NCBI GenBank assembly: GCA_965658655.1
Contig: CBFHTA010000001.1
Span: 250,696 to 314,695, forward strand
Direction of reading: 5' to 3'
From: Candidatus Babelota bacterium
GTDB lineage: Bacteria > Babelota > Babeliae > Babelales > CAIQNR01
Length of the DNA: 64,000 nucleotides
Shown here in pieces: positions 22,958 through 35,082 of the stretch (the stretch's first letter is position 1; the number at the start of each line of letters is the position of its first letter). The notes beneath the pieces were generated by a model. It saw only the letters and a list, made by a program, of their open reading frames with translations, was not told where the DNA came from and did not search any database. Made by a program: the position numbers and the translations under genes.

Positions 22958-23731
22958 TTATACCTGTGAACTTTTTTCTATTATTGTTCCATCTGGAGTG
23001 GTTGGAAGTACTTTGTCTTTATAAGAATAGTATGGCATACCATTGTGTTCGGACCTTTCATATTCTTCTTTAGTATAAGGTTTTAAAAAGCCTTTTGGTA
23101 TTCGGAATTCTTGTTCGCGGGCGTTAGGATGTTCTCTTGTTGTTTTAAGTTCTTTTTTTTCTCTTTGGAAGTGTTCAACATATAAGCATTTTTTTGGTAT
23201 TGCTCCAGCACTAAGCAGATGTGTAACTACTTCATCATTGTTTTGTTTATCGAAAACCATACCGAGTGGGGTGAGTATTACACCATCCTTATTTATGCTT
23301 CCGTGGTTAAGCTCAGCATTGGCTGCAATCATGACTTTAACGGTTGATGCCATTAGATTCTGACTTGCTAGTCCAAGTGGAGTGGTTTTATTTTCGTAGG
23401 TTTCTCCAGTAAAATACTGACTTTTTCTTTTTGGTCCTGTTATTCCTTTATTAGGGTCAGCATTGGCTACAATAAGCTGGTTAGCATTTTTGGGATAGTT
23501 TTCTAAGCACATTTTCCCAAGTGCGGTTATGGTTGAATCTTTCTTATACACTGCACACGCGTTAGGATTAGCATTGTTACGCAGAAGTAATTCAATGTAA
23601 TGAGGATTATCACATGTTATCCCTAGTAAAGGGTTGATTTCTTCAGAGTGAACTTTTTTAACGCTATTTCCCGTAACAATTGAGTTTATAGAAAGTGATA
23701 ATGCTAAGAGTAGTGTTAATTTTTGATGCAT
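22958..23731 (-). CDS. Secreted ankyrin-like repeat protein (no U-box)
   Basis: Signal peptide MHQKLTLLLALSLSINS. Degenerate ANK units with the same variant core as the 27-32 kb cluster (TITALGKMCLENY, TTPLGLASQNLMASTVKVMIAANAELN, ILTPLGMVFDKQNNDEVVTHLLSAGA). Confidence 0.55.
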   Translation of the reverse strand: MHQKLTLLLALSLSINSIVTGNSVKKVHSEEINPLLGITCDNPHYIELLLRNNANPNACAVYKKDSTITALGKMCLENYPKNANQLIVANADPNKGITGPKRKSQYFTGETYENKTTPLGLASQNLMASTVKVMIAANAELNHGSINKDGVILTPLGMVFDKQNNDEVVTHLLSAGAIPKKCLYVEHFQREKKELKTTREHPNAREQEFRIPKGFLKPYTKEEYERSEHNGMPYYSYKDKVLPTTPDGTIIEKSSQV

Positions 23732-25012: not shown

Positions 25013-25446
25013 TCCTGTCCTCAAAAGCGTTACGGTATAATATTGTACAAAACCAGTATGCGGGTAAGAATACCACATCATTTTTGAGCTCGCAACTTGG
25101 CAAAGATTTATTAAAATACTATTTTCTGTCTTTAAAGGTCCTGGCTAGAGCTTAATCATCATTGATTTGAGCAGCTGGTTTAGGTGATTGTTTTGATTCA
25201 ACAGGAAGAATCTCTCCAATATAGAGTTATCTTTATTTCTAAATTACCTTTTTTTGAAGTTTCTAGCATTTTAAAAATTATCTTGAAAGTGGTCAATAAA
25301 ACTGTACAGAGCGTACCACGTCATTCAATAGCTTGTAATAAGAGTAAGAGCTATCAAAATTAGCTTGAGTCTGGTATTTTCGATAAAGAAGTGACACATT
25401 CATCGGTAAGCATAAGCTTATGGTATTGGGTAAGACGGAGAAAAGT

Positions 25447-27156
25447 ATGGTAAATAAAACATTAGGTCAGCTGTTAGTTGAGAGCGGAGCAATTACGGAG
25501 GAACAAGCAAGAAAGTTCCAAGAAGAGGCTCAAAAAGCACACATTCCTTTTGCGCGTTATCTGTATGACAAACACTTGGTAGCAGAAGAATCTATTGCTC
25601 AAGCCTATGCAACTATGACTGGTCTTACCTTTCTTAACGATATAACAGACGAAATGGCAGATCCGCTTTTATTAGCAAAGGTACCTCTTAAGTTTTTGCG
25701 CGAGAACAGAGTGATTCCTATTAAAGATAAAGGCACTTCTCTAGTTACCGCTAACCCTACAGACTTTTCTCCTGTTGATGAACTTCAATTACTTTTTGGT
25801 AATGATGTAAAGATTGTAATCTCTACTCCCAAATCTATTCTTGATGCCCTTAATCATTATTATCCGCTTGAGGGTACCGACGAAATGATGGAAGATCTGG
25901 AGAAAGACGGTGATGCAGCAGATCTCTCTTTTGCAGACATTGACGAGAAAGACATTTTAAGTAGTGCCAACGATGCGCCTATTATTAAATTAGTTAACTA
26001 TATTCTTTTTCAAGCAGATAAAATGAATGCATCTGATGTGCACGTTGAACCTGGAGAGAAAGAAATTAGAATACGTTTTAGAGTTGACGGCCGCATGCAC
26101 CAATTCATGACAGTTCCTAAAAGAATGGAGGGCGCTGTTGCTTCTCGTATTAAAATTATGTCGAATTTAAACATTGCAGAAAAACGTAAACCTCAAGATG
26201 GGCGTATTGAAATTCGTATTGGTGACAAACGTATTGATCTTCGTGTTTCTTTTTTACCAGCGGTATATGGAGAAAGCGTTGTTATGCGTCTACTTGATAA
26301 AGACAAAGGGTTTTCTGAGTTAGACAATCTTGGTTTAAGTAAGCGAGACTACGAAGTAGTTACCCAAAGCATTGCTCGACCTAACGGAATATTCTTGGTG
26401 TCTGGGCCAACCGGTTCTGGTAAAACTACCACGCTGTATTCTATCTTGAGTCGCATTAATGTTCCTACGGTTAATGTTATTACGGTAGAAAACCCGGTTG
26501 AGTATCAGTTGCCTGGTATTACACAAGTACAAGTAGACCCTAAAGTAGACTTAACCTTTGCCAGCGCGCTTCGTGCAATTTTACGTCAAGATCCAGACAT
26601 TGTAATGATTGGTGAAACACGAGACCAAGAGACAGCACAGATTGCTATTCAAGCAGCATTAACTGGTCATTTAGTGTTAACAACCATTCATACTAACGAT
26701 GCTCCTTCTATTATCACTCGTTTAATAGACATGGGCATTGAACCGTTTTTAATTGCCTCTTCTATTGTTGCTGGTATGGCGCAACGTTTGGTTCGTAAAC
26801 TCGACCCTGCATGTAAAGAAGCATACAAACCATCAGAAGAAGTACTTAAAAGTTTAGGCATGGATCCGGCAAAGAACAAAAACGTTACCTTCTACCGACC
26901 AAAAGGGTGCAAGGAATGTAATATGATGGGGTATAAAGGTCGGCTTCCAATCTTTGAAGTTATGGACCTGACAGACTCTATCGCAGATCTTACTATGGCC
27001 CGAGCAGCTACACTTAAAATTAGGCAGCAGGCACAAAGAGATGGTATGACCACATTGCTTGATGATGGTATTAAGAAAATAAAAGAAGGCTTGACGAGTG
27101 TAGAAGAGGTTGTTTCTGTAGCAACTGTTTTTGATAATCCCGCAGATTCTGAATAA
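25447..27156 (+). CDS. Type II secretion / type IV pilus assembly ATPase (GspE/PilB family)
   Basis: N-terminal T2SSE_N-like domain (LGQLLVESGAITEEQ...). Walker A SGPTGSGKTTTLYS, Asp box and Walker B (DPDIVMIGETRD), His box LTGHLVLTTIHTN, and a Cys cluster (CKEAY...GCKECNMMGYKGR). Start at 25447 (GGAG 6 nt upstream). An alternative ATG lies at 25420. Confidence 0.9.
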   Translation: MVNKTLGQLLVESGAITEEQARKFQEEAQKAHIPFARYLYDKHLVAEESIAQAYATMTGLTFLNDITDEMADPLLLAKVPLKFLRENRVIPIKDKGTSLVTANPTDFSPVDELQLLFGNDVKIVISTPKSILDALNHYYPLEGTDEMMEDLEKDGDAADLSFADIDEKDILSSANDAPIIKLVNYILFQADKMNASDVHVEPGEKEIRIRFRVDGRMHQFMTVPKRMEGAVASRIKIMSNLNIAEKRKPQDGRIEIRIGDKRIDLRVSFLPAVYGESVVMRLLDKDKGFSELDNLGLSKRDYEVVTQSIARPNGIFLVSGPTGSGKTTTLYSILSRINVPTVNVITVENPVEYQLPGITQVQVDPKVDLTFASALRAILRQDPDIVMIGETRDQETAQIAIQAALTGHLVLTTIHTNDAPSIITRLIDMGIEPFLIASSIVAGMAQRLVRKLDPACKEAYKPSEEVLKSLGMDPAKNKNVTFYRPKGCKECNMMGYKGRLPIFEVMDLTDSIADLTMARAATLKIRQQAQRDGMTTLLDDGIKKIKEGLTSVEEVVSVATVFDNPADSE

Positions 27157-27251
27157 ATTTATTGGTTAAAGATTAATAATCTATTACGAAAAAAGTTTGA
27201 ATGATATAGTTCTATTTTTTGCTTAGGTATTTTTTATTATTCTATGTATTT

Positions 27252-27286
27252 AAAGCCCCATGAAAGATCGTAATTCATGGGGCTTT
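27252..27286. terminator. 13-bp perfect hairpin between convergent genes
   Basis: aaagccccatgaa / ttcatggggcttt with a 9-nt loop, 8 nt beyond the stop of 27294..28442. There is no long U tract beyond the stem, so terminator function is presumed rather than canonical. Confidence 0.55.
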
Positions 27287-27293
27287 AATGGTA

Positions 27294-28442
27294 TTAATTA
27301 GATTGATCGATATGGCGTGATTCTTCAGCAGCTGCAGCAGCAGGACCGGTTGAAGATTCCTCTTCATCTTTACTTTCATAGGGATAAATGAATGTATCGA
27401 GTTTTTGATTTATGTTCTCTGTACCGCATGAAGGGCATCTTAGAGGGCCTCGGTTGTTACTTTTCCATGTTGTAAATGCATCTTCTCCTACAAAGTTAAG
27501 GCAACAGCTTAGATAGTGTAAAGATTGGTCTTTTTTAAAAGACTCTAACATAATAGGACACGTGGATTGTTCTTTAATAGTATGTTGTTTGAGGATTGTT
27601 TTGATCTGATCGTTCCTTGTAAGTTGGTATGCATTTCTTCTTTTAAGATCAACTCTTTTATAGGGTGCTCCATTTTCTAGCAAAAATTTTACAATGGTAT
27701 GCTTTCCGGCATAGCAGGTTAATCCAAGAGGTGTTGTTTTTGTTCCATCAGGAGATGTTGCACCATCTTTGATATCGGCTCCGTTTTCTAGTAAAAATTT
27801 TGCAACAGTATGGTTGCCATTATAGCAGGCTAATCCAAAAGGTGTTATTTTTGTTCCATTAGCATATGTTGTACCATCTTTGATATCGGCTCCGTTTTCT
27901 AGTAAGAATTTTGCAATATCATACTTACCTTGAGAAGAGGCTAATCCAAAAGGTGTTGTTTTTGTTTTATCAGGAGATGTTTCACCGTTTGTGATATCTG
28001 CACTATGTGTTAATAATAAACCTACAATTTCTAGTTTGTTGTTTCGTATTGCTATGCTAAGAGGGCTTGTTATCATTCCATTCTTATAAATAGAACCTGT
28101 TTCTAGATTAACTCTGTTTTTTAATAGAATGCTTACTATCTTAGAATGACCATAACGGCATGCTTCAGCAAGAGGCGTTGTTTGTTCATCTTCACTAATA
28201 AAAGTTGGTTCATTAATTGGTGTTTTCTCTTTTATTAATTTTTCTACAGTATCTATATTTCCTGATTGACAAGCTGTTACCAGTGATTTTAAGGCAAAAT
28301 CTTTATCAATTTTTATTGATGCAGCTTCTTGATTACTGTTCTCTCTAGAAAGTTCACTTTTTTTATCATCAGGATTTCCTGTAAAAATAGACCCTGCATG
28401 TAAAAGAGCAAAAGAAAGGAATAGTAGTTTTTTGGTTTTCAT
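27294..28442 (-). CDS. Secreted ankyrin-repeat protein with C-terminal U-box/RING-like domain (paralog 1)
   Basis: Signal peptide MKTKKLLFLSFALLHAGSIFTG. About 6 ANK-like units of 37 aa (TPFGLACYNGNHTVAKFLLENGADIKDG). C-terminal module CPIMLESFKKDQSLHYLSCCLNF..FTTW..RCPSCG...LDTFIYPY, then the tail ESKDEEESS. Confidence 0.8.
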   Translation of the reverse strand: MKTKKLLFLSFALLHAGSIFTGNPDDKKSELSRENSNQEAASIKIDKDFALKSLVTACQSGNIDTVEKLIKEKTPINEPTFISEDEQTTPLAEACRYGHSKIVSILLKNRVNLETGSIYKNGMITSPLSIAIRNNKLEIVGLLLTHSADITNGETSPDKTKTTPFGLASSQGKYDIAKFLLENGADIKDGTTYANGTKITPFGLACYNGNHTVAKFLLENGADIKDGATSPDGTKTTPLGLTCYAGKHTIVKFLLENGAPYKRVDLKRRNAYQLTRNDQIKTILKQHTIKEQSTCPIMLESFKKDQSLHYLSCCLNFVGEDAFTTWKSNNRGPLRCPSCGTENINQKLDTFIYPYESKDEEESSTGPAAAAAEESRHIDQSN

Positions 28443-28604
28443 CTTGTATCTCCATTTTAATACTATATCATAAATTTATAATTCTAATTGTAATATATTT
28501 AGCATATTTGTCAATCGGCTATTTAAGCTTAAATAATACGTTTAGGGAAGTTTTGGTTGCAGAGTAAAGAATTGGCTTTGAGCTTAAGTGAGCTTGTTTA
28601 GCTA

Positions 28605-29888
28605 TCAGTGCTCTTTGAGATCTGAGGATTCTTCTTCATCTTTACTTTCATAGGGATAAATGAATGTATCGAGTTCTTGATTTATGTTTTCTGTACCGCA
28701 TGAAGGGCAGCTTAGAGGGCCTTGGTTGTTACTTTTCCATGTTGTAAATGTATCTTCTCCTACCCAGTCAGAGAATTCTTCAGCGCCTGTAAAGTTAGAA
28801 CAGCAATTTAGAAAGTGTAATTCTTCGTCTTTTTCAAAAGAAGATAAACGAATAGGGCATGTGGATTGTTCTTGAATAGCACGTTTTTTAATGAGTTCTC
28901 TAATTTGGTTCTTATTAATTTTTTGATCTTCACTATCTAGTTGATATGAATGAGCTACTTGATATGCATTACGGTCTTTAGATGTAACTCTCTTAAAAGA
29001 AACTCTTGGGTCATCAAGTAATGTTTTTACAGTATCAACATAACCCTCTTCAGAGGCAAGACTAAGCGCGGTCACTTGTTTTCCGTTAGGATAAGCATAA
29101 GCAAAAGCATTAGGTTCAATTCTTTGATTAGTAAGTAATGCTTGTACCGTAGCGGTACGGCCGTTATAAGAGGCAAGGCCAAGTGCGGTTATTCCTACTC
29201 CAGAAGTATTGATAAACTGATAAGCTGTGGCGTTAATTCTTTTGTCACCAAGGAGTGCTTTTGTAGCATCAGTATGGCCGTTTTGACAAGCAAATCCAAG
29301 AGCCGTCGCTTGTGCTCCATTAGGATTCATATGCTGATACATTGTGGGGTCAACTCTTTTGTCACCAAGGAGTGCTTTTGCAATATCAGTATGGCCTTTT
29401 TCACAAGCTAAACTAAGTGCGGTCAGTTTTTTTCCTTTAGGATGAGCATAAGCAAAAGCATTAGGTTCAATTCTTTTGTCATCAAGGAGTGCTTTTGCAA
29501 TATTAGTATGGCCTTTTTTGGTAGCAAGGCCAAGTGCGGTCATTTGTACCCCACTAGGATAAGTAAACTGAAAAGCATTAGGTTCAATTCTTTTATCAGC
29601 AAGTAGTGTTTTTACAGTGCTCATATAGCCTTCTTGAGTAGCAATGCCAAGCGCAGATATGTGTATTCCATCAGGTTCCGTTATTAATATATTGGGATCA
29701 AAGTCAAAAGACCCATTAAGTAGGCTTTGTATAGCTTTTATATCCTGGTTTTTACAGGCTTCAATAAACTTTATTTGATTGTGCATAGTTGATTTATCTG
29801 CACTTCCTGCATAAGAGTTATTGTCACTTGTAAAAATACAACCTGTGTACACCAAAGATAATCCAAAAAGAAGTAAGTTTTTATTCAT
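28605..29888 (-). CDS. Secreted ankyrin-repeat protein with C-terminal U-box/RING-like domain (paralog 2)
   Basis: Signal peptide MNKNLLLFGLSLVYTGCIF. About 7 units of 39 aa (LTALSLACEKGHTDIAKALLGDKRVDPTMY). C-terminal CPIRLSSFEKDEELHFLNCCSNF...FSDW...FTTW...SCPSCG...LDTFIYPYESKDEEESS. Confidence 0.8.
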   Translation of the reverse strand: MNKNLLLFGLSLVYTGCIFTSDNNSYAGSADKSTMHNQIKFIEACKNQDIKAIQSLLNGSFDFDPNILITEPDGIHISALGIATQEGYMSTVKTLLADKRIEPNAFQFTYPSGVQMTALGLATKKGHTNIAKALLDDKRIEPNAFAYAHPKGKKLTALSLACEKGHTDIAKALLGDKRVDPTMYQHMNPNGAQATALGFACQNGHTDATKALLGDKRINATAYQFINTSGVGITALGLASYNGRTATVQALLTNQRIEPNAFAYAYPNGKQVTALSLASEEGYVDTVKTLLDDPRVSFKRVTSKDRNAYQVAHSYQLDSEDQKINKNQIRELIKKRAIQEQSTCPIRLSSFEKDEELHFLNCCSNFTGAEEFSDWVGEDTFTTWKSNNQGPLSCPSCGTENINQELDTFIYPYESKDEEESSDLKEH

Positions 29889-29894
29889 TATAAC

Positions 29895-29972
29895 CTTTAT
29901 TAATATGATATTATTTTGTGTGATAACATTTTTAATTTAGTTATCACACAAAATAATATCATATTAATAAAG
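29895..29972. repeat. Perfect 33-bp inverted repeat (12-nt loop) between paralogs 2 and 3
   Basis: 29895-29927 ctttattaatatgatattattttgtgtgataac is the exact reverse complement of 29940-29972. The stem ends 6 nt from the paralog-2 ATG and covers part of its AAAGG SD-like sequence. Confidence 0.95.
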
Positions 29973-29988
29973 ATAAAAAAGTTTCAGA

Positions 29989-32097
29989 TTAATCAATATC
30001 CATAACTGGCTCATCATCCATAACTGGCTCACCTGAGGATTCTTCTTCATCTTTACTTTCATAAGGATAAATGAATGTATCGAGTTCTGTTGGTATGTTT
30101 GGTTTTTGGCATGCAGGGCAAATGACAGTACCATGATATCGCATTCTTTGTCCTACCCAGTCAGAGAATCCTGCAGTGCCTGTAAAGTTAGAACAGCAAT
30201 TTAGAAAGTGTAATTCTTCGTCTTTTTCAAAAGGCGCTAAAGTAATAGGATCTTCGGATTGTTCTTGAATAGCACGTTTTTTAATAAGTTCTTTGATTTG
30301 ATTTTTATTAACTTTTTGATCTTCACTAGTTGCTGGATATGCATTAGCTATTTTGTATGCATTATGTCCTGCAGATGTAACTCTCTTAAAAGAAACTCTT
30401 GGGTCATCAAGTAATGCTTTTATAGTATTAATATGACCATTTATAGAGGCAATACCAAGTGCAGAAAACTGCCTTCCGTCATCGCCCTTCATCGCAACAG
30501 CATTAGGTTCAACTCTTGGGTCAGCAAGTAACGCTTGTGCCAGAGCAGCACGATCATAACGAGCAGCAAGGCCAAGTGCAGTGGTTTGTGATCCATTAGG
30601 AAAAGTAGCCTGAAAACCATTAGGTTCAACTCTTGGGTCAGCAAGTAACGATTTTATAGTATTAATATTACCATTTATAGAGGCAAGACCAAGTGCAGAA
30701 AAATCCCTTCCTTTATCGTCCTTAATCGCACAAGCATTAGGCTCAACTTTTGGGTCAGCAAGTAACGCTTGTGCCAGAGCAGCACGGTCATAACGAGCAG
30801 CAAGGCCAAGTGCAGTGATTTGTGATCCATCAGGAAAAGTAGCCTGAAAACCATTAGGTTCAACTCTTTCATCAGCAAGTAATGCTTGTGCCGAAGCGGT
30901 CTGGTTTGCGATAGAAGCAGCTCCAAGTGGGGTGACTTCTGCTTTATATTTTGTCTGCGCAACAGCATTAGGTTTAATTCTTTCATCAGCAAGTAATGCT
31001 TTTACCGTATTAATATGACCATTTTGAGAGGCAATAGAAAGTGCTGTATGCCTTGTTCCTTGAGGATCAATAATTAAAGAATTGGGGTTAGTTCTTTCAT
31101 CAGCAAGGAGTGCTTTTACCGTATTAATATGACCATTTTGAGAGGCAAGGCCAAGTGCCGTATGCCTTCTTCCTTGAGGATCAATAAAGGACAAAGAATT
31201 GGGGTTAGTTCTTTCATCAGCAAGGAGTGCTTTTACAGTAGCAACATGACCTTTTTTAACAGCAAGGCCAAGTGCCGTATGCCTTTTTCCTTGAGGATCA
31301 ATAAAGGAAAAAACATTGGGGTTAGTTCTTTCATCAGCAAGGAGTGCTGTTACAGTATCTGTATCACCTTTTATAGAGGCAATGCCAAGTGCCGCCTGTT
31401 TTCTTCCATTAGAAGCAATTCCGGAAACAGCATTAGGGTCAATTCTTGGGTGAGCAAGGAGTGCTGTTACAGTATCTGTATCACCTTCTATAGAGGCAAT
31501 GCTAAGTGCTGCATGTTTTGTTCCGTTAGGATCAATAAAGGAAAAGGCGTTAGGGTCAATTCTTCGGTCAGCAAGGAGTGCTTGTACAGTAGCAGTACGC
31601 CGATTTTGACAGGCAATACCGAGTGCATTACATTGTGATTGGTTTTTATCAAGATATTGATAAGCGTTAGGGTCAATTCTTCGGTCAGCAAGGAGTGCTT
31701 GTACAGTAGCAGTATGGCCATTTTGAGAGGCAACACCGAGTGCGGTAAGCTGTGTTCCATTAGGATGAATAGATTGATAAACTGTAGGGTCAATTCTTGG
31801 GTGCTTAAGGAGTGCTTGTACAGTCGCAGTATGGCCGTGACGAGAGGCCACACCAAGCCCAGACACTTGTATTCCATCAGGTTCCATTATTAACATATTG
31901 GGATCAAAGTCAAAAGACCCATTGAGTAAGCTTTGTAGAGCTTTTATATCCTGGTTTTTACAGGCTTCAATAAACTTTATTTGATTGTGCATAGTTGATT
32001 CATCTGCACTTCCTGCATAAGGGTTATTGTCACTTGTAAAAATACAACCTGTATACACCAAAGATAACCCAAGAAAAAGTAGGCTTTTAACTTTCAT
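29989..32097 (-). CDS. Secreted ankyrin-repeat protein with C-terminal U-box-like domain (paralog 3, expanded array)
   Basis: Start set at MKVKSLLFLGLSLVYTGCIF. The 12 nt upstream (atggagatcaaa) align with the GGAG 5'-UTR of paralog 1. About 14 units of 38-39 aa. C-terminal DPITLAPFEKDEELHFLNCCSNF..FSDW...ICPACQ...LDTFIYPYESKDEEESS. Confidence 0.8.
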   Translation of the reverse strand: MKVKSLLFLGLSLVYTGCIFTSDNNPYAGSADESTMHNQIKFIEACKNQDIKALQSLLNGSFDFDPNMLIMEPDGIQVSGLGVASRHGHTATVQALLKHPRIDPTVYQSIHPNGTQLTALGVASQNGHTATVQALLADRRIDPNAYQYLDKNQSQCNALGIACQNRRTATVQALLADRRIDPNAFSFIDPNGTKHAALSIASIEGDTDTVTALLAHPRIDPNAVSGIASNGRKQAALGIASIKGDTDTVTALLADERTNPNVFSFIDPQGKRHTALGLAVKKGHVATVKALLADERTNPNSLSFIDPQGRRHTALGLASQNGHINTVKALLADERTNPNSLIIDPQGTRHTALSIASQNGHINTVKALLADERIKPNAVAQTKYKAEVTPLGAASIANQTASAQALLADERVEPNGFQATFPDGSQITALGLAARYDRAALAQALLADPKVEPNACAIKDDKGRDFSALGLASINGNINTIKSLLADPRVEPNGFQATFPNGSQTTALGLAARYDRAALAQALLADPRVEPNAVAMKGDDGRQFSALGIASINGHINTIKALLDDPRVSFKRVTSAGHNAYKIANAYPATSEDQKVNKNQIKELIKKRAIQEQSEDPITLAPFEKDEELHFLNCCSNFTGTAGFSDWVGQRMRYHGTVICPACQKPNIPTELDTFIYPYESKDEEESSGEPVMDDEPVMDID
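30967..31431. repeat. Tandem 114/117-bp DNA repeats (one ANK unit each) within paralog 3
   Basis: att[ag]gg[gt]tta[ga]ttctttcatcagcaag[gt]a[ga]tgcttttac recurs at 30967, 31081, 31198 and 31315. Confidence 0.8.
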
Positions 32098-32198
32098 TTT
32101 GATCTCCATTTTAAATATTTTTATTATAATTCTAATTGTAAATAAGCGATATGGTCGTTGTCAACAGTATATGTACATTAAGCATTGTGCAAAGGTGC

Positions 32199-32251
32199 TT
32201 TTATAAAGAGATAAGCTTAAAAAATTATTTTTAGTTTATCTCTTTATAAAA
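32199..32251. repeat. 16-bp perfect inverted repeat in the divergent intergenic region between paralog 3 and the tamB-like gene
   Basis: ttttataaagagataa (32199-32214) and ttatctctttataaaa (32236-32251) with a 21-nt AT-rich loop. Confidence 0.85.
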
Positions 32252-32361
32252 TTTATAATTGTAGCCTTTAAGGCTCAGGCCTTTTTTATCTATTTTTATC
32301 TTTTTCTCTGGCCGAGAGAATGTTTTTTCGATAAGCTCTAGGCATCATAAAGGGTCCCTTC

Positions 32362-35082
32362 ATGCGTAATTTTCGTTTACTGTCAAAAATAGTTTTATCT
32401 CTTTTTCTAGGTCTTTTCTTGGCTTTGGCATGGTTTCAATTTGATGAACGATTTATTGCGCTCGCAAATAGTGGTATGGAAAAAGTTTTTGAAAAACAGT
32501 TGAATTGTCAATTTAAAGGAAAGGTGGTTCGAGTAAATCCGTTTTTATTAACCATTCATTTTGAAGATGTACAAGTAGAACCTTTTGATATGAGTAATAA
32601 CTGGTCTTGGAGTGTTGCTCAAATGACCATGAAGCTTTCATTTCTTGAGTATCTTTACTACGGTGCTTTTGGGCTACACGTAAATCTTACAACATTGCAT
32701 TCCTTCTCTGGGCTCAAAAAAAATGGTGTTCCTATGGTAAGCGATCATTTGCTAGATCTTTTTGCAGGAGCTAACTTTAGTGTGCCCATTTCATTTCAAA
32801 CAGTTGCAATTGTTGATGGTTCGTTACTTGTTGACGATGTTGATAGAAAAGTTTCATTCATATGTCATTGGAATAGTAATGCAGGGAAAGCGGGCAGAGA
32901 TTTTAAGTCTAAGTTTTATCTTTCAGATACCTCTTTAACGTTAGATAATAAAAAAATATTTGAGCAATTTAGTGGACAAATAACATTTGATGCTTTGCAT
33001 GGCAATGCGTTTATTAGGATGGCAACCGATGCTATGTTTATGTTGCCGCAGTTACCAGAAGATCAACGAGATTGTTACGTTCTTGGTTCTTGGGATAAGA
33101 ATGCAGGAAGCTTTGTGGTTTACAATCAAGATAGAACATTGTCCTTTGTTCCTATTGAATTGGTGATGGGTAAAAAGGGTCTGTTGGTGAATGCTGAAGG
33201 GGTGATTTTATTAGAATATTTAAAGCGATTTTTTTATCCGCATATATCACAAACACTTAAGGGCATGGGTTACTTAAAAGTTTCTGGAGATCTTAACGGA
33301 TCGTTGCAGACAAAAGTGCGTATGCAAGATGTGGGTTATGGTAGTTATTTGTTAGATGAATTGTATGGTGATGTAATGCATGTTTCTTCTGAATGGCGTG
33401 GCTCAATTGGTGCCACTAAAAATAATGCTGCAGTAACTGGTACATGGTGGTGGTCTGATAGTGTTAAACAGGGAGTAGTACAATTGGTTAATAGAAATAC
33501 CTTACCTTTTTTAACAAGTACTTATTGGCAGACTTTGCCAGGAAGAACTGCGCTGCAGATTGTATTTAAAAACGATGGTAATGGTAAATTAGAGTATGTT
33601 ACACAGCTTGCGCATAAAAAAACTGAGCATACTGTAAACAGTTCAGGTACGGTGACACATACGAATACCACCATTAAATGTAGCGGATCAGTGGGAGACA
33701 ACACTTATACAGCAACGGTAAATACCAAGCCGATGTGGCTAAAGTCATTTATATATGCCAATGGTGCCAAGAAGAAATTGATCACTTTAACTACTAATAA
33801 ACAAAATAAATTTTCTTTGTCTTTTGATTATGATGCTGCCCAAATGTTTGCGCTTGATTGGTTAGATCTTGATCTATATGGGCAAGGAGTTTTTGATGTT
33901 TCAGGTTGTATGGAATTTCCTAAATTTGTGGGAACACTTTCCTTTAAGAATGGAACTATTCGTCCAGCAGGGATGTATAATTTTATCTCAGATATTACAG
34001 CTCGATTTATTGGTGATGTTAATAAAAAAGAATGTAGTATAAAAGATACACTTATTACACTTCATCAAGGGAAAATAGTAAGTGACAAAATTTCCTGCTT
34101 CTTTAACGATGATGGTTCAGTTTATGGATTGCATAGTCCATTTAGGTTTGAAAGTTGTTTTTTAAATTGGAGTAAATACTTATACGCTATTTGTACCGGG
34201 AGCTTTGTGCTTCAAGTTGGATCGGGGGTAGAGAATGCTCTTGATGGATTCCTTGTGTTTGAACGTTCACAATTTAAAGAAAATATCTTTGCTCTTCAGA
34301 CACAAAAAAGTGCAATTAACGCTTTACCAAGACAACATGCTTTAAGTTCTTTATCTTTAAACCTTGGAGTATCTACGCAGGCTCCTTTACTTGTGTCTAC
34401 ACCTCATTTACAAACACAGGCAATTTTAGATTGGTTTTTAACTGGAAAATTAGGTGCTCCAGAGTTGCAAGGATCATTGCAATTAAAAGGTGGAAAACTG
34501 GTATTTCCTGGACAAACATTGGCTATTTCTCAAGGTAAGCTTACGTTTGCTCCTACGCATTCTGAAGATCCTCTTCTTGATTTAACAGCACAAGCGCGTA
34601 TTAAAAAATATTTGGTAACCATGAATATTGGTGGAACCATTAAAGAACCGGAAGTTCTTTTACAAGCAACACCAGGGCTTTCTGAAGAGCAAATTATTAT
34701 GTTACTACTGACGGGAAGTGAGCAAGAATCTTTTAATATTATGGTTCCATCGCTGGTTATGCGTAACCTAGAAACTATTCTTTTTGGTCCATCAAAAGCG
34801 TTGGGCCATGCTTCGAACACGCTTTCCTCTTGGTTAAAGCCTTTAGAAAAAGTAACGTTTGTACCTCGATTTAATGATCAAACAGGAACGGGAGGCTTTA
34901 AGGGAGTGCTTGAGGTAGAAGTAAGTAAGCGATTGCGCGCAGTTCTGGAGAAAGACTTTAGTTTGGCAGAAGATACTGCGGCAGAAATAGAGTATCTTGC
35001 TTCCGATGATGTAAGTTTTAAAGTTAATAGAGATGAGCGTGGCGATATTGGCGCTGAGGTAGAGATGCGATTTAAATTTTAA
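32362..35082 (+). CDS. tamB: TamB/AsmA-like translocation and assembly module protein
   Basis: N-terminal membrane anchor (IVLSLFLGLFLALAWF). About 900 aa, beta-rich. C-terminal DUF490-like region (DPLLDLTAQARIKKYLVTMNIGGTIKEPEVLLQATPGLSEEQIIMLLLTGS). Confidence 0.7.
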   Translation: MRNFRLLSKIVLSLFLGLFLALAWFQFDERFIALANSGMEKVFEKQLNCQFKGKVVRVNPFLLTIHFEDVQVEPFDMSNNWSWSVAQMTMKLSFLEYLYYGAFGLHVNLTTLHSFSGLKKNGVPMVSDHLLDLFAGANFSVPISFQTVAIVDGSLLVDDVDRKVSFICHWNSNAGKAGRDFKSKFYLSDTSLTLDNKKIFEQFSGQITFDALHGNAFIRMATDAMFMLPQLPEDQRDCYVLGSWDKNAGSFVVYNQDRTLSFVPIELVMGKKGLLVNAEGVILLEYLKRFFYPHISQTLKGMGYLKVSGDLNGSLQTKVRMQDVGYGSYLLDELYGDVMHVSSEWRGSIGATKNNAAVTGTWWWSDSVKQGVVQLVNRNTLPFLTSTYWQTLPGRTALQIVFKNDGNGKLEYVTQLAHKKTEHTVNSSGTVTHTNTTIKCSGSVGDNTYTATVNTKPMWLKSFIYANGAKKKLITLTTNKQNKFSLSFDYDAAQMFALDWLDLDLYGQGVFDVSGCMEFPKFVGTLSFKNGTIRPAGMYNFISDITARFIGDVNKKECSIKDTLITLHQGKIVSDKISCFFNDDGSVYGLHSPFRFESCFLNWSKYLYAICTGSFVLQVGSGVENALDGFLVFERSQFKENIFALQTQKSAINALPRQHALSSLSLNLGVSTQAPLLVSTPHLQTQAILDWFLTGKLGAPELQGSLQLKGGKLVFPGQTLAISQGKLTFAPTHSEDPLLDLTAQARIKKYLVTMNIGGTIKEPEVLLQATPGLSEEQIIMLLLTGSEQESFNIMVPSLVMRNLETILFGPSKALGHASNTLSSWLKPLEKVTFVPRFNDQTGTGGFKGVLEVEVSKRLRAVLEKDFSLAEDTAAEIEYLASDDVSFKVNRDERGDIGAEVEMRFKF

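Follow-up and report, generated by a model that had tools for sequence, protein, structure and literature searches.

Three neighbouring genes of a Candidatus Babelota bacterium encode ankyrin-repeat proteins with the same short acidic block close to their C-termini, and the question raised by this locus is whether the block is kept by selection on the peptide or by exchange of the underlying DNA. The window analyzed here comprises 64,000 nucleotides (contig CBFHTA010000001.1, positions 250,696 to 314,695 of the forward strand), and all coordinates below refer to it. The genes, denoted A, B, and C, form an array of three tandem open reading frames (ORFs) on the minus strand, located between a gspE-type ATPase gene and a TamB-family gene. 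Their products share a common build, i.e. a basic-then-hydrophobic leader, an ankyrin (ANK) array, a Cys-poor module of ~100 residues with weak similarity to RING domains, the block itself (hereafter also called the tail), and a non-homologous end of 5-19 residues. The genes and their blocks are as follows.

27294..28442, minus strand: gene A, 382 amino acids (aa), with leader, ANK array of 37-aa period, RING-like module, tail, and an 18-aa variable end (TGPAAAAAEESRHIDQSN)
28605..29888, minus strand: gene B, 427 aa, a chimera, with a 5-aa variable end (DLKEH)
29989..32109, minus strand: gene C, 706 aa, with a long ANK array of 39-aa period, RING-like module, tail, and variable end (GEPVMDDEPVMDID)
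27351..27404, minus strand: block of gene A, KLDTFIYPYESKDEEESS, residues 347-364
28623..28676, minus strand: block of gene B, ELDTFIYPYESKDEEESS, residues 405-422
30034..30087, minus strand: block of gene C, ELDTFIYPYESKDEEESS, residues 675-692
27297..27350, minus strand: variable low-complexity end of gene A after the tail; the homology of the three paralogues stops exactly at its upstream edge

Three paralogues share one block

A sequence-only reading of the window had placed the block at three sites (27351-27404, 28623-28676, and 30034-30087), and it is indeed present there in all three ORFs: 17 residues (LDTFIYPYESKDEEESS) are identical, and the residue preceding them is either K or E. 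A 41-nt DNA pattern of the block was matched three times in the window, each time without mismatch, and not at all in shuffled windows. Within the 51 nt coding for LDTF..ESS only three sites vary (CCC/CCT, GAG/GAA, and TCT/TCC), all of them synonymous third positions. The near-identity of the DNA noted in that reading is upheld, except that just the first of the two positions it had given as a or g is variable. The codon is common to all three copies at 14 of the 17 positions, against 5.1 expected from the codon usage of the window (P ~1e-6), and the rare CTC and TTC are among these codons. For genes A and C, the 3 mismatches in 51 nt, set against the mismatch rate of the flanks, correspond to a binomial P of 6e-7 (~1e-4 after correction for the number of windows).

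Beyond the block, the sequences of the three genes are unrelated at both the protein and the DNA level, as had been claimed, and all three lose their homology at a single base immediately after the block. The tail end of gene A, the sequence after the tail, and the 3′ flank recur in an independent Logan assembly from this organism (L002), which ends inside the block.

Purifying selection acts on the peptide

Nonsynonymous (dN) and synonymous (dS) divergence, and hence dN/dS, were compared block by block from NG86 estimates. Between A and C, the tail showed a dN of 0 and a dS of 0.42, compared with a dN of 0.47 and a dS of 0.55 in the flank. The corresponding values were 0 and 0.25 in the tail vs. 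0.24 and 0.47 in the flank for A and B, and 0 and 0.12 vs. 0.24 and 0.25 for B and C. The flanks run at a dN/dS of ~0.5-1, and a dN of 0 is unique to the block. The probability of finding no replacement in the block between A and C, over 41.7 nonsynonymous sites, is 1.6e-8. Depletion of replacements is separately significant for the LDTFIY half (2e-3) and for the PYESKDEEESS half (8e-6), and the synonymous nature of all three variable sites has a P of 0.006. Within the tract converted between A and B, the 30 codons beside the tail contain five differences (dN 0.059, dS 0.055, dN/dS ~1), four of which are replacements; the tail itself contains two synonymous changes only. Since a dN of 0 coincides with a flank-like dS, the excess conservation of the block is due to purifying selection on the peptide and not to a private conversion patch.

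A function of the repeat at the RNA or DNA level was rejected in view of the all-synonymous third-position variation and of orthologues whose DNA has diverged while the peptide was kept.

Recombination shapes the whole C-terminal module

At the codon level, gene B resembles gene C from its N-terminus to 'WVGE' and gene A from 'VGED' to the end of the block. The dS between A and B drops from 0.90 upstream of VGED to 0.055 between VGED and the tail, and the dS between B and C rises from 0.18 to 0.50 over the same boundary. These block-wise switches demonstrate that recombination or gene conversion among the tandem paralogues shapes the whole C-terminal module of ~100 residues, along which dS ranges from 0.05 to 0.9 depending on the block. 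When A is compared with B or C, identical residues are encoded by the same codon in ~81-82% of cases in the C-terminal module and in 41-49% in the ANK part, which argues that the module is younger than the ANK arrays or has been transferred between unrelated ones. It is because the module is young that the DNA of the block, including its shared rare codons, is so similar among the copies.

The sequence-only reading had named selection or gene conversion as possible causes of the conservation. This was the right pair, with different targets: conversion applies to the whole module and selection to the tail peptide. The proposed refutation, i.e. that very recent duplication explains the identity entirely, applies in part. 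Flanking synonymous sites are about as similar as those of the tail, so that youth explains the DNA, and the tail is present in homologues in diverged form, so that recent duplication is not the only cause.

Four independent Logan contigs end at or inside tail-coding sequence, namely L002 (7789), L013 (9860), L015 (3290), and L016 (6558). These ends fit a k-mer assembler stopping at a repeat and are consistent with, without proving, a repeat at this place. Related genomes may also hold several paralogues with a common tail and RING-like 3′ part.

Relatives of the array in Babeliales-type sequences

An exhaustive HMMER profile search, with a profile built from the three modules, was run against 1.84 billion representatives (~15 billion proteins). 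It returned six hits, comprising gene B itself (P0001), four true relatives (P0002-P0005), and a low-complexity match in an unrelated 886-aa repeat protein (P0006). Further members were obtained from syntenic metagenome contigs anchored on GspE relatives at 85-88% identity, and with both sources the RING-like module is known in about a dozen sequences. A word-index protein search with the C-terminal module of gene B gave no matches; repeated with a 7-sequence profile, it gave only P0002 and P0005.

Two types of tail were found among the relatives. Type 1 tails carry the block in diverged form: (i) ELNLLEYPFETQEEEE in P0002; (ii) ELDTLEYPFEAQAEEE in P0003; (iii) TLEYPFEQTAEEQ in L013; and (iv) EYPFEQTDTEEE in L016. 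Their DNA is identical to the window copies at 32-37 of 54 positions (59-69%), with codon differences such as Leu CTC vs. TTA and Tyr TAT vs. TAC. Diverged DNA with a kept motif indicates that conservation between organisms acts at the protein level. Type 2 tails read ..LRDFEYNPGTKD..LPIDL (L014 and L015), ..DAFEYETGTKE..LPIDL (L009), and ..ANEFVCLQDYYDNNALPIDL (P0004). The tail of P0005, a protein with a CxxC as its first pair and more Cys and His than the window proteins, reads ..PLNSFLYKGD...

The most widely kept part is LxxFxY. Nine members could be read through this region, and eight of them have it, at a distance of 6-12 (mostly 6-8) residues from the last CxxC; P0004 departs from it with ANEFVC, and L013 and L016 are cut off inside the region. 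The looser form [LVA]xxFx[YC] is present behind the last CxxC of every one of the eight aligned members, P0005 among them; six of these, and L014, have the strict form. P[YF]E followed by an acidic run is restricted to one subfamily.

Outside the family, the motif was not recovered. When 185,579 species genomes were scanned with degenerate DNA for YPYESKDEE, the only match was a chance one, in a FemAB-type gene (YPYETKDEE), and the window's own copies were not returned; the source genome is absent from this collection or masked in it, so that the scan is no genome-wide census of this organism. Strict and relaxed tail patterns had no matches in viral contigs, and the relaxed pattern had one chance match in metagenome contigs, in a high-GC junk ORF. 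A regular-expression scan of six-frame translations of the window and of all fetched loci found the motif on no protein outside this family.

The extreme C-termini show recurrences of their own. DID is found in gene C (..VMDID, window 29992-30000), L003, and L004; LPIDL in L005, L009, L014, and L015; DDEL in L007; and KEDTDS in L013 and L016. These endings are separated from the block by hypervariable linkers rich in Ala, Gly, Pro, and Glu. They may represent a second terminal motif, lost in gene B; gene A shows HID and then QSN.

The genes surrounding the array are as follows.

25420..27156, plus strand: gspE-type ATPase gene (MshEN + T2SSE), conserved convergent neighbour and anchor for synteny and lineage
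32362..35082, plus strand: TamB-family gene, likewise conserved, divergently oriented and flanking the array on its opposite side
22958..23731, minus strand: fourth leader-bearing ankyrin gene, 257 aa, matched with gene A by phmmer at E 1.4e-11

The fourth ankyrin gene lies four genes from the array, on the hisS side, and has neither the RING-like module nor the tail block. P0002 is located between tamB-side DNA and gspE-bamD-UPF0102-hisS, in the same order as in the window, P0004 adjoins tamB, and the array adjoins gspE in every relative examined. This adjacency reads as synteny, and a functional link between gspE and the tail would be conjectural. Across the relatives L004, L005, L009, L011, and L012, the interval between gspE and tamB (window 27157-32361) is a variable slot, which in the window holds the three ANK-RING-like genes. 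In L004 it is filled by a single ANK-RING-like gene. L009 has an ANK-RING-like gene there too, together with a 164-aa leader-bearing gene that matches nothing in Pfam, and L011 and L012 have nothing but a 180-aa ANK gene devoid of the module. L003 and L005 contain tandem paralogues. A GC-rich hairpin (aaagccccatgaa...ttcatggggcttt, window 27250-27290) comes directly after the gene A stop codon and looks like an intrinsic terminator common to the convergent gspE and gene A.

The lineage is indicated by the named GspE homologues (58-61% identity), which belong to 'Candidatus Babeliales bacterium', and by the distant module homologue P0005, annotated as Candidatus Babeliales. Babeliales are a group within the Dependentiae (TM6), whose members live as obligate parasites of protists. 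One GspE with 85% identity to that of the window (P0013/L014, JGI 3300053698) is labelled 'MAG: Alteromonas naphthalenivorans' at NCBI; its contig shows Babeliales-type synteny and is probably mis-binned.

The leaders of the window proteins (MKTKKLLFLSFALLHAGSIF.., MNKNLLLFGLSLVYTGCIF..) look, by inspection, like Sec signal peptides. In Babela massiliensis, 79 of 126 ANK proteins have signal peptides (PMC4378268), as do 78% of the 98 ANK proteins of Chromulinavorax (PMC6561590), so that most ANK proteins of both organisms bear signal peptides and are taken as secreted effectors (PMC4378268, PMC6561590). No secretion system other than type II is reported for Babela massiliensis, the one cultured relative checked, and in particular no type III or type IV secretion system (T3SS, T4SS); the genome of this organism encodes proteins of the ubiquitin system, including one RING protein (PMC4378268). 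Judged by these features, the family would consist of predicted exported proteins, so far seen only in Babeliales-type sequences.

A further sequence element follows the leader in some relatives. A stretch of the form KRPAEEQAGPA..QEE.K.RK is located right after the leader in P0003 (L003 56-1099), in the L004 ORF 1289-1945, and in the L011 gene 11073-11615. At the same place P0004 (L005 4490-5536) has a weaker basic stretch (GKKRKAEKHPEAP..), and the three window proteins have none. The stretch looks like a bipartite nuclear localisation signal, for which that of nucleoplasmin (KRPAATKKAGQAKKKK) served as comparison.

Ankyrin arrays and the probable RING-like module

The ANK parts are unambiguous. 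The three proteins match Pfam Ank_2 with E values of 2.5e-31, 1.5e-28, and 4.4e-59, and the AlphaFold2 model of gene A reached a predicted local distance difference test score (pLDDT) of >90 over its ANK part, residues ~50-290. The repeat period is 117 nt (39 aa) in B (28980-29700) and C (30380-31830) and 111 nt (37 aa) in A (27667-28019); the canonical period is 33 aa. Some neighbouring repeats in C are 89-92% identical, suggesting recent repeat amplification.

Between the ANK array and the tail, the modules occupy the following positions.

27426..27560, minus strand: RING-like module of gene A, CPI...H...CC...W...CPSC, residues 295-339
28698..28859, minus strand: RING-like module of gene B, residues 344-397
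30109..30252, minus strand: RING-like module of gene C, with DPI instead of CPI at its start, residues 620-667

The best zf-RING_2 match had an E value of 1.3e-3 (16.8 bits vs. a cut-off of 27.3) and covered profile positions 2-43 of 44; the Pfam Rtf2 RING was matched at E 7.8e-3 (14.6 bits vs. a cut-off of 27.4). A profile search of the PDB returned the RINGs of MEKK1 (4.6e-3) and TRIM5 (0.039) and a plant RING-H2 (0.062), and hhalign against RNF4 gave an E value of 0.005 with a probability of 6.9%, in an alignment that stops six residues after CPxC and leaves the tails unaligned. All RING matches span CPI to CPxC. The sequence-only reading had called these proteins ANK-U-box proteins, and this part of it is not supported: Pfam U-box (PF04564) was not matched at E values up to 10, hhalign against the CHIP U-box gave a probability of 0.2% with one aligned column, and similarity was found, weakly, to RINGs only. 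F-I-Y-P-Y resembles the L-I-P-N motif of U-boxes by eye only.

In place of the eight zinc ligands of a RING, the window proteins offer four or five, i.e. Cys or Asp at the first position (CPI/DPI), H-x3-CC, and CPxC. The pattern H-x3-C-C...C-x2-C is invariant in the window proteins and in P0002, P0003, P0004, and P0005, and constitutes the only plausible zinc site left; the L009 member does not even have the CC and H pattern. In the window proteins, P0002, P0003, P0004, and L009, [TERVSI][CDS]P[ILV] stands where a RING has its first CxxC, with TCPI or EDPI in the window proteins, RSPI, VSPL, SDPV, and IDPI in relatives, and a CxxC in P0005 alone. At the Cys of CPI, the position expected of the first zinc ligand in a RING, gene C has Asp (residue 620, 30250-30252) and most orthologues have Ser or Asp. 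The first zinc site seems to have been lost in this lineage, and the module is a degenerate, probably single-zinc RING-like module, whose E3 activity is putative.

The C-terminal region had been described as an unstructured tail. This does not apply to the whole, because the first six residues of the block, LxxFxY, are conserved near the last CxxC in most of the family and may be part of the domain instead of a free tail. The low pLDDT of the acidic part and of the end is compatible with disorder. AlphaFold2 runs on the C-terminal module alone, with seven sequences, gave a pLDDT of 50 and were unusable.

What the block may do

We give an even chance to the reading that selection maintains the block as the C-terminal end of an ANK-RING-like effector family of Babeliales type, and that the block combines a RING-proximal functional element with an acidic linear motif. 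Here, LxxFxY (LDTFIY in the window) would be the closing structural or functional element of the RING-like domain, because it follows the last CxxC at a short, near-constant distance, is of hydrophobic/aromatic character, and is present in most of the family. As a strand or a short helix, it could pack against the domain, or it could contribute to contacts within a dimer or with a ubiquitin-charged E2 (E2~Ub). P[YF]E and the acidic run (PYESKDEEESS in the window) mark the beginning of a low-complexity end that evolves fast, is prone to indels, and would be disordered; they would serve all paralogues as a short, acidic docking site for one shared partner. As the data above show, the module is exchanged among the tandem paralogues by recombination or conversion, which explains the DNA identity, and replacements are purged from the 17 block codons while the surrounding module evolves at a dN/dS of ~0.5-1.

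Several observations weigh against this reading. The RING assignment is weak, below every curated threshold, and most zinc ligands are missing. AlphaFold2 pLDDT values, obtained from shallow alignments, are 43-53 for the RING-like module and 26-38 for the block and the end; such values would be equally compatible with a fully disordered tail and lend no model support to packing of LDTFIY on the domain. Between organisms, the tail is ~47-59% identical to P0002 and P0003, which is not above the rest of the module (51-53%). The dS of the tail rests on 9.3 synonymous sites, leaving some room for a tail-specific conversion event, and the alignment of C with A and B contains a gap just upstream of the tail. 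An acidic half acting as a mere spacer would be expected to conserve its composition only, and within this genome the exact sequence is kept.

A possible but distinctly less probable account treats the entire block as a short linear motif directed at the host and situated in a disordered tail; the motif would lead all paralogues to the same host compartment or partner, whatever their ANK arrays bind. It might be an acidic cluster with S/T-x-x-E sites of the casein kinase 2 (CK2) type, used in sorting or in binding adaptors; a TRAF6-like motif (P-x-E-x-x-[acidic/aromatic]); or a host-phosphorylated Tyr amid acidic residues. The position of the block, as an island of conservation with a fast-evolving domain on one side and a hypervariable end on the other, is typical of linear motifs; the pLDDT of 26-38 over the tail agrees with this account, and the lineage is parasitic on protists, with ANK proteins thought to act in the host (PMC4378268, PMC6561590). 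S/T-x-x-E occurs in the window proteins (S-K-D-E), P0002 (T-Q-E-E), L013 (T-A-E-E), and L016 (T-D-T-E and T-E-E-E), and P-x-E-x-x-[DE] in the window proteins, P0002, and L016, both as matches to consensus patterns. However, P0003 (EAQAEEEN; A-Q-A-E) has no phospho-acceptor before the acidic run, and the putative Ser of ESKDEEE is replaced by T, A, or Q in orthologues, which speaks against the CK2 site suggested by the sequence-only reading; the TRAF6-like pattern fails in P0003 and L013. The hydrophobic LxxFxY, moreover, is the most widely kept part and is also found in members without an acidic run (P0005, L009, and L014), which better fits a domain element, and in the data searched the block was on no other type of protein. 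Compared by eye as consensus patterns, LC3- and Atg8-interacting regions (LIR/AIM), YxxPhi, di-leucine, YPxL, PPxY, NPxY, the SUMO-interacting motif (SIM), and the clathrin box did not fit the residues conserved among orthologues. A KDEL-type retrieval signal was rejected as well, as only P0005 ends in DDEL. In a further reading that we consider rather improbable, the block would be a lineage-specific linear signal common to a set of Babeliales effectors. It would be either an acidic/tyrosine docking motif, regulated by host kinases, that brings ANK-RING-like ligases with different targets to one host compartment or partner, or a recognition tag for the route by which Sec-exported ANK proteins of Dependentiae leave the cell and enter the host; if true, this would give sequence-level access, for the first time in this uncultured phylum, to how effectors are delivered or targeted.

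It is unlikely that the block has no function of its own and that its identity is a by-product of recent duplication and ongoing conversion, with tracts overlapping at the 3′ end of the homology. The array is clearly mosaic with tracts at a dS of ~0.05, the shared rare codons reflect common descent of the DNA, the three genes lose their homology at one base, and the four Logan contigs ending at or inside the tail fit a repeat there, again without proof. All of this would follow from duplication and conversion, but the tail dS between A and C (0.42) is not lower than that of the flank (0.55), and it is only dN that differs (0 vs. 0.47). Nor would a by-product account for three substitutions that are all synonymous (P = 0.006), for 30 tail-adjacent codons of the A-B tract with five differences at a dN/dS of ~1 next to a tail with two synonymous ones only, or for retention of the motif in other organisms at 59-69% DNA identity. 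Very unlikely, in our view, is an export or translocation signal, or a recognition site for a chaperone or secretin, acting through the neighbouring type II machinery or into the host. An acidic C-terminal stretch does resemble the E-block of Dot/Icm substrates, the block is identical on three paralogues despite their different ANK arrays, the array adjoins gspE in every relative examined, and a type II secretion system (T2SS) is the sole system reported in Babela (PMC4378268). However, T2SS substrates are not known to use linear C-terminal signals, and the adjacency to gspE is synteny, which is no evidence of function. N-terminal Sec-type leaders are already present, gene 22958-23731 and the ANK genes at the same locus in L011 and L007 have no block, and other family members at this locus have quite different tails (..LPIDL type). 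Moreover, neither a T3SS nor a T4SS is reported for Babela massiliensis, the one cultured relative checked (PMC4378268). The translocation signal considered in the sequence-only reading is weakened by the Sec-type leaders, by the neighbouring leader-ANK gene without the tail, and by the restriction to a T2SS in Babela massiliensis (PMC4378268). With Sec leaders on these proteins and no block on the other leader-ANK genes of the window and of the related loci searched, the block does not qualify as a C-terminal translocation signal of the Dot/Icm E-block or T3SS/T4SS type.

Comparison with known systems

Leader-bearing ankyrin proteins take up a large part of the genomes of Dependentiae, which are widespread and mostly uncultured parasites of protists, and the block is one clearly selection-constrained element inside such an ankyrin family. 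F351, Y353, P354, and Y355, together with the acidic run, offer a concrete target for mutagenesis, with ubiquitin ligase activity, E2 or host partner binding, and localisation as readouts. The array is also a worked example of effector-array evolution, with a module that is shuffled and converted and changes near-neutrally apart from one short block. Nothing known is overturned: conserved C-terminal motifs on effector paralogues are expected, and the mechanism proposed here is one that we infer.

Bacterial effectors that combine repeats with RING- or U-box-type E3 domains include LubX and GobX of Legionella (U-box), the ANK, F-box, and U-box proteins of Candidatus Amoebophilus, and the RING-finger protein reported in Babela massiliensis. 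Like these, the window proteins come from a host-associated bacterium, fuse eukaryote-type repeats to a small Cys-containing domain with a weak RING alignment from CPI to CPxC, and form fast-evolving tandem paralogues. Unlike them, they lack most zinc ligands and any significant Pfam U-box or RING match, their E3 activity is putative, and they carry at the N-terminus a Sec-type leader in place of a type IV signal. A C-terminal block of this kind, specific to the family, is not known from any of those effectors.

A second comparison concerns the tails of dimeric RING E3 ligases, such as RNF4 (..HKRYHPIYI), MDM2 (..IVLTYFP), and BIRC7/cIAP/XIAP (..RTFLS), where hydrophobic/aromatic residues located 8-14 positions beyond the last Cys serve both in forming the dimer and in contacting the ubiquitin of E2~Ub. 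The likeness, to be taken as a lead only, is that LDTFIYPY is located 9-16 residues after the last CxxC and is strictly conserved while the domain varies. In contrast to those tails, which form the extreme C-terminus, LDTFIYPY is followed by the acidic run and 5-19 further residues, which sets it apart from this class, and hhalign did not align it with the tail of RNF4. Single-zinc RINGs (the SP-RING of Siz/PIAS and the Rtf2-type C2HC2) resemble the module in having one plausible zinc site, in line with its weak Rtf2 match; that match is well below the curated cut-off, however, and the locus has no SUMO-pathway context.

Acidic-cluster/CK2 motifs (furin, PACS-1 type) and the Dot/Icm E-block have in common with the block a Glu/Asp run with S/T-x-x-E near the C-terminus of a predicted effector. 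The differences from these motifs are a phospho-acceptor that varies among members (P0003 has A, L013 and L016 have Q), a distance to the C-terminus that ranges from 5 to 19 residues, and the Sec leaders of the proteins; in addition, no type IV system is reported for Babela massiliensis, the one cultured relative checked (PMC4378268).

Effectors with eukaryote-like repeats and E3-type domains are well known in amoeba-associated bacteria, and ANK expansions in Dependentiae have already been described. What is new compared with these is a very small family with a degenerate RING-like module, a strongly constrained C-terminal block, and a picture of module shuffling and conversion among its members.

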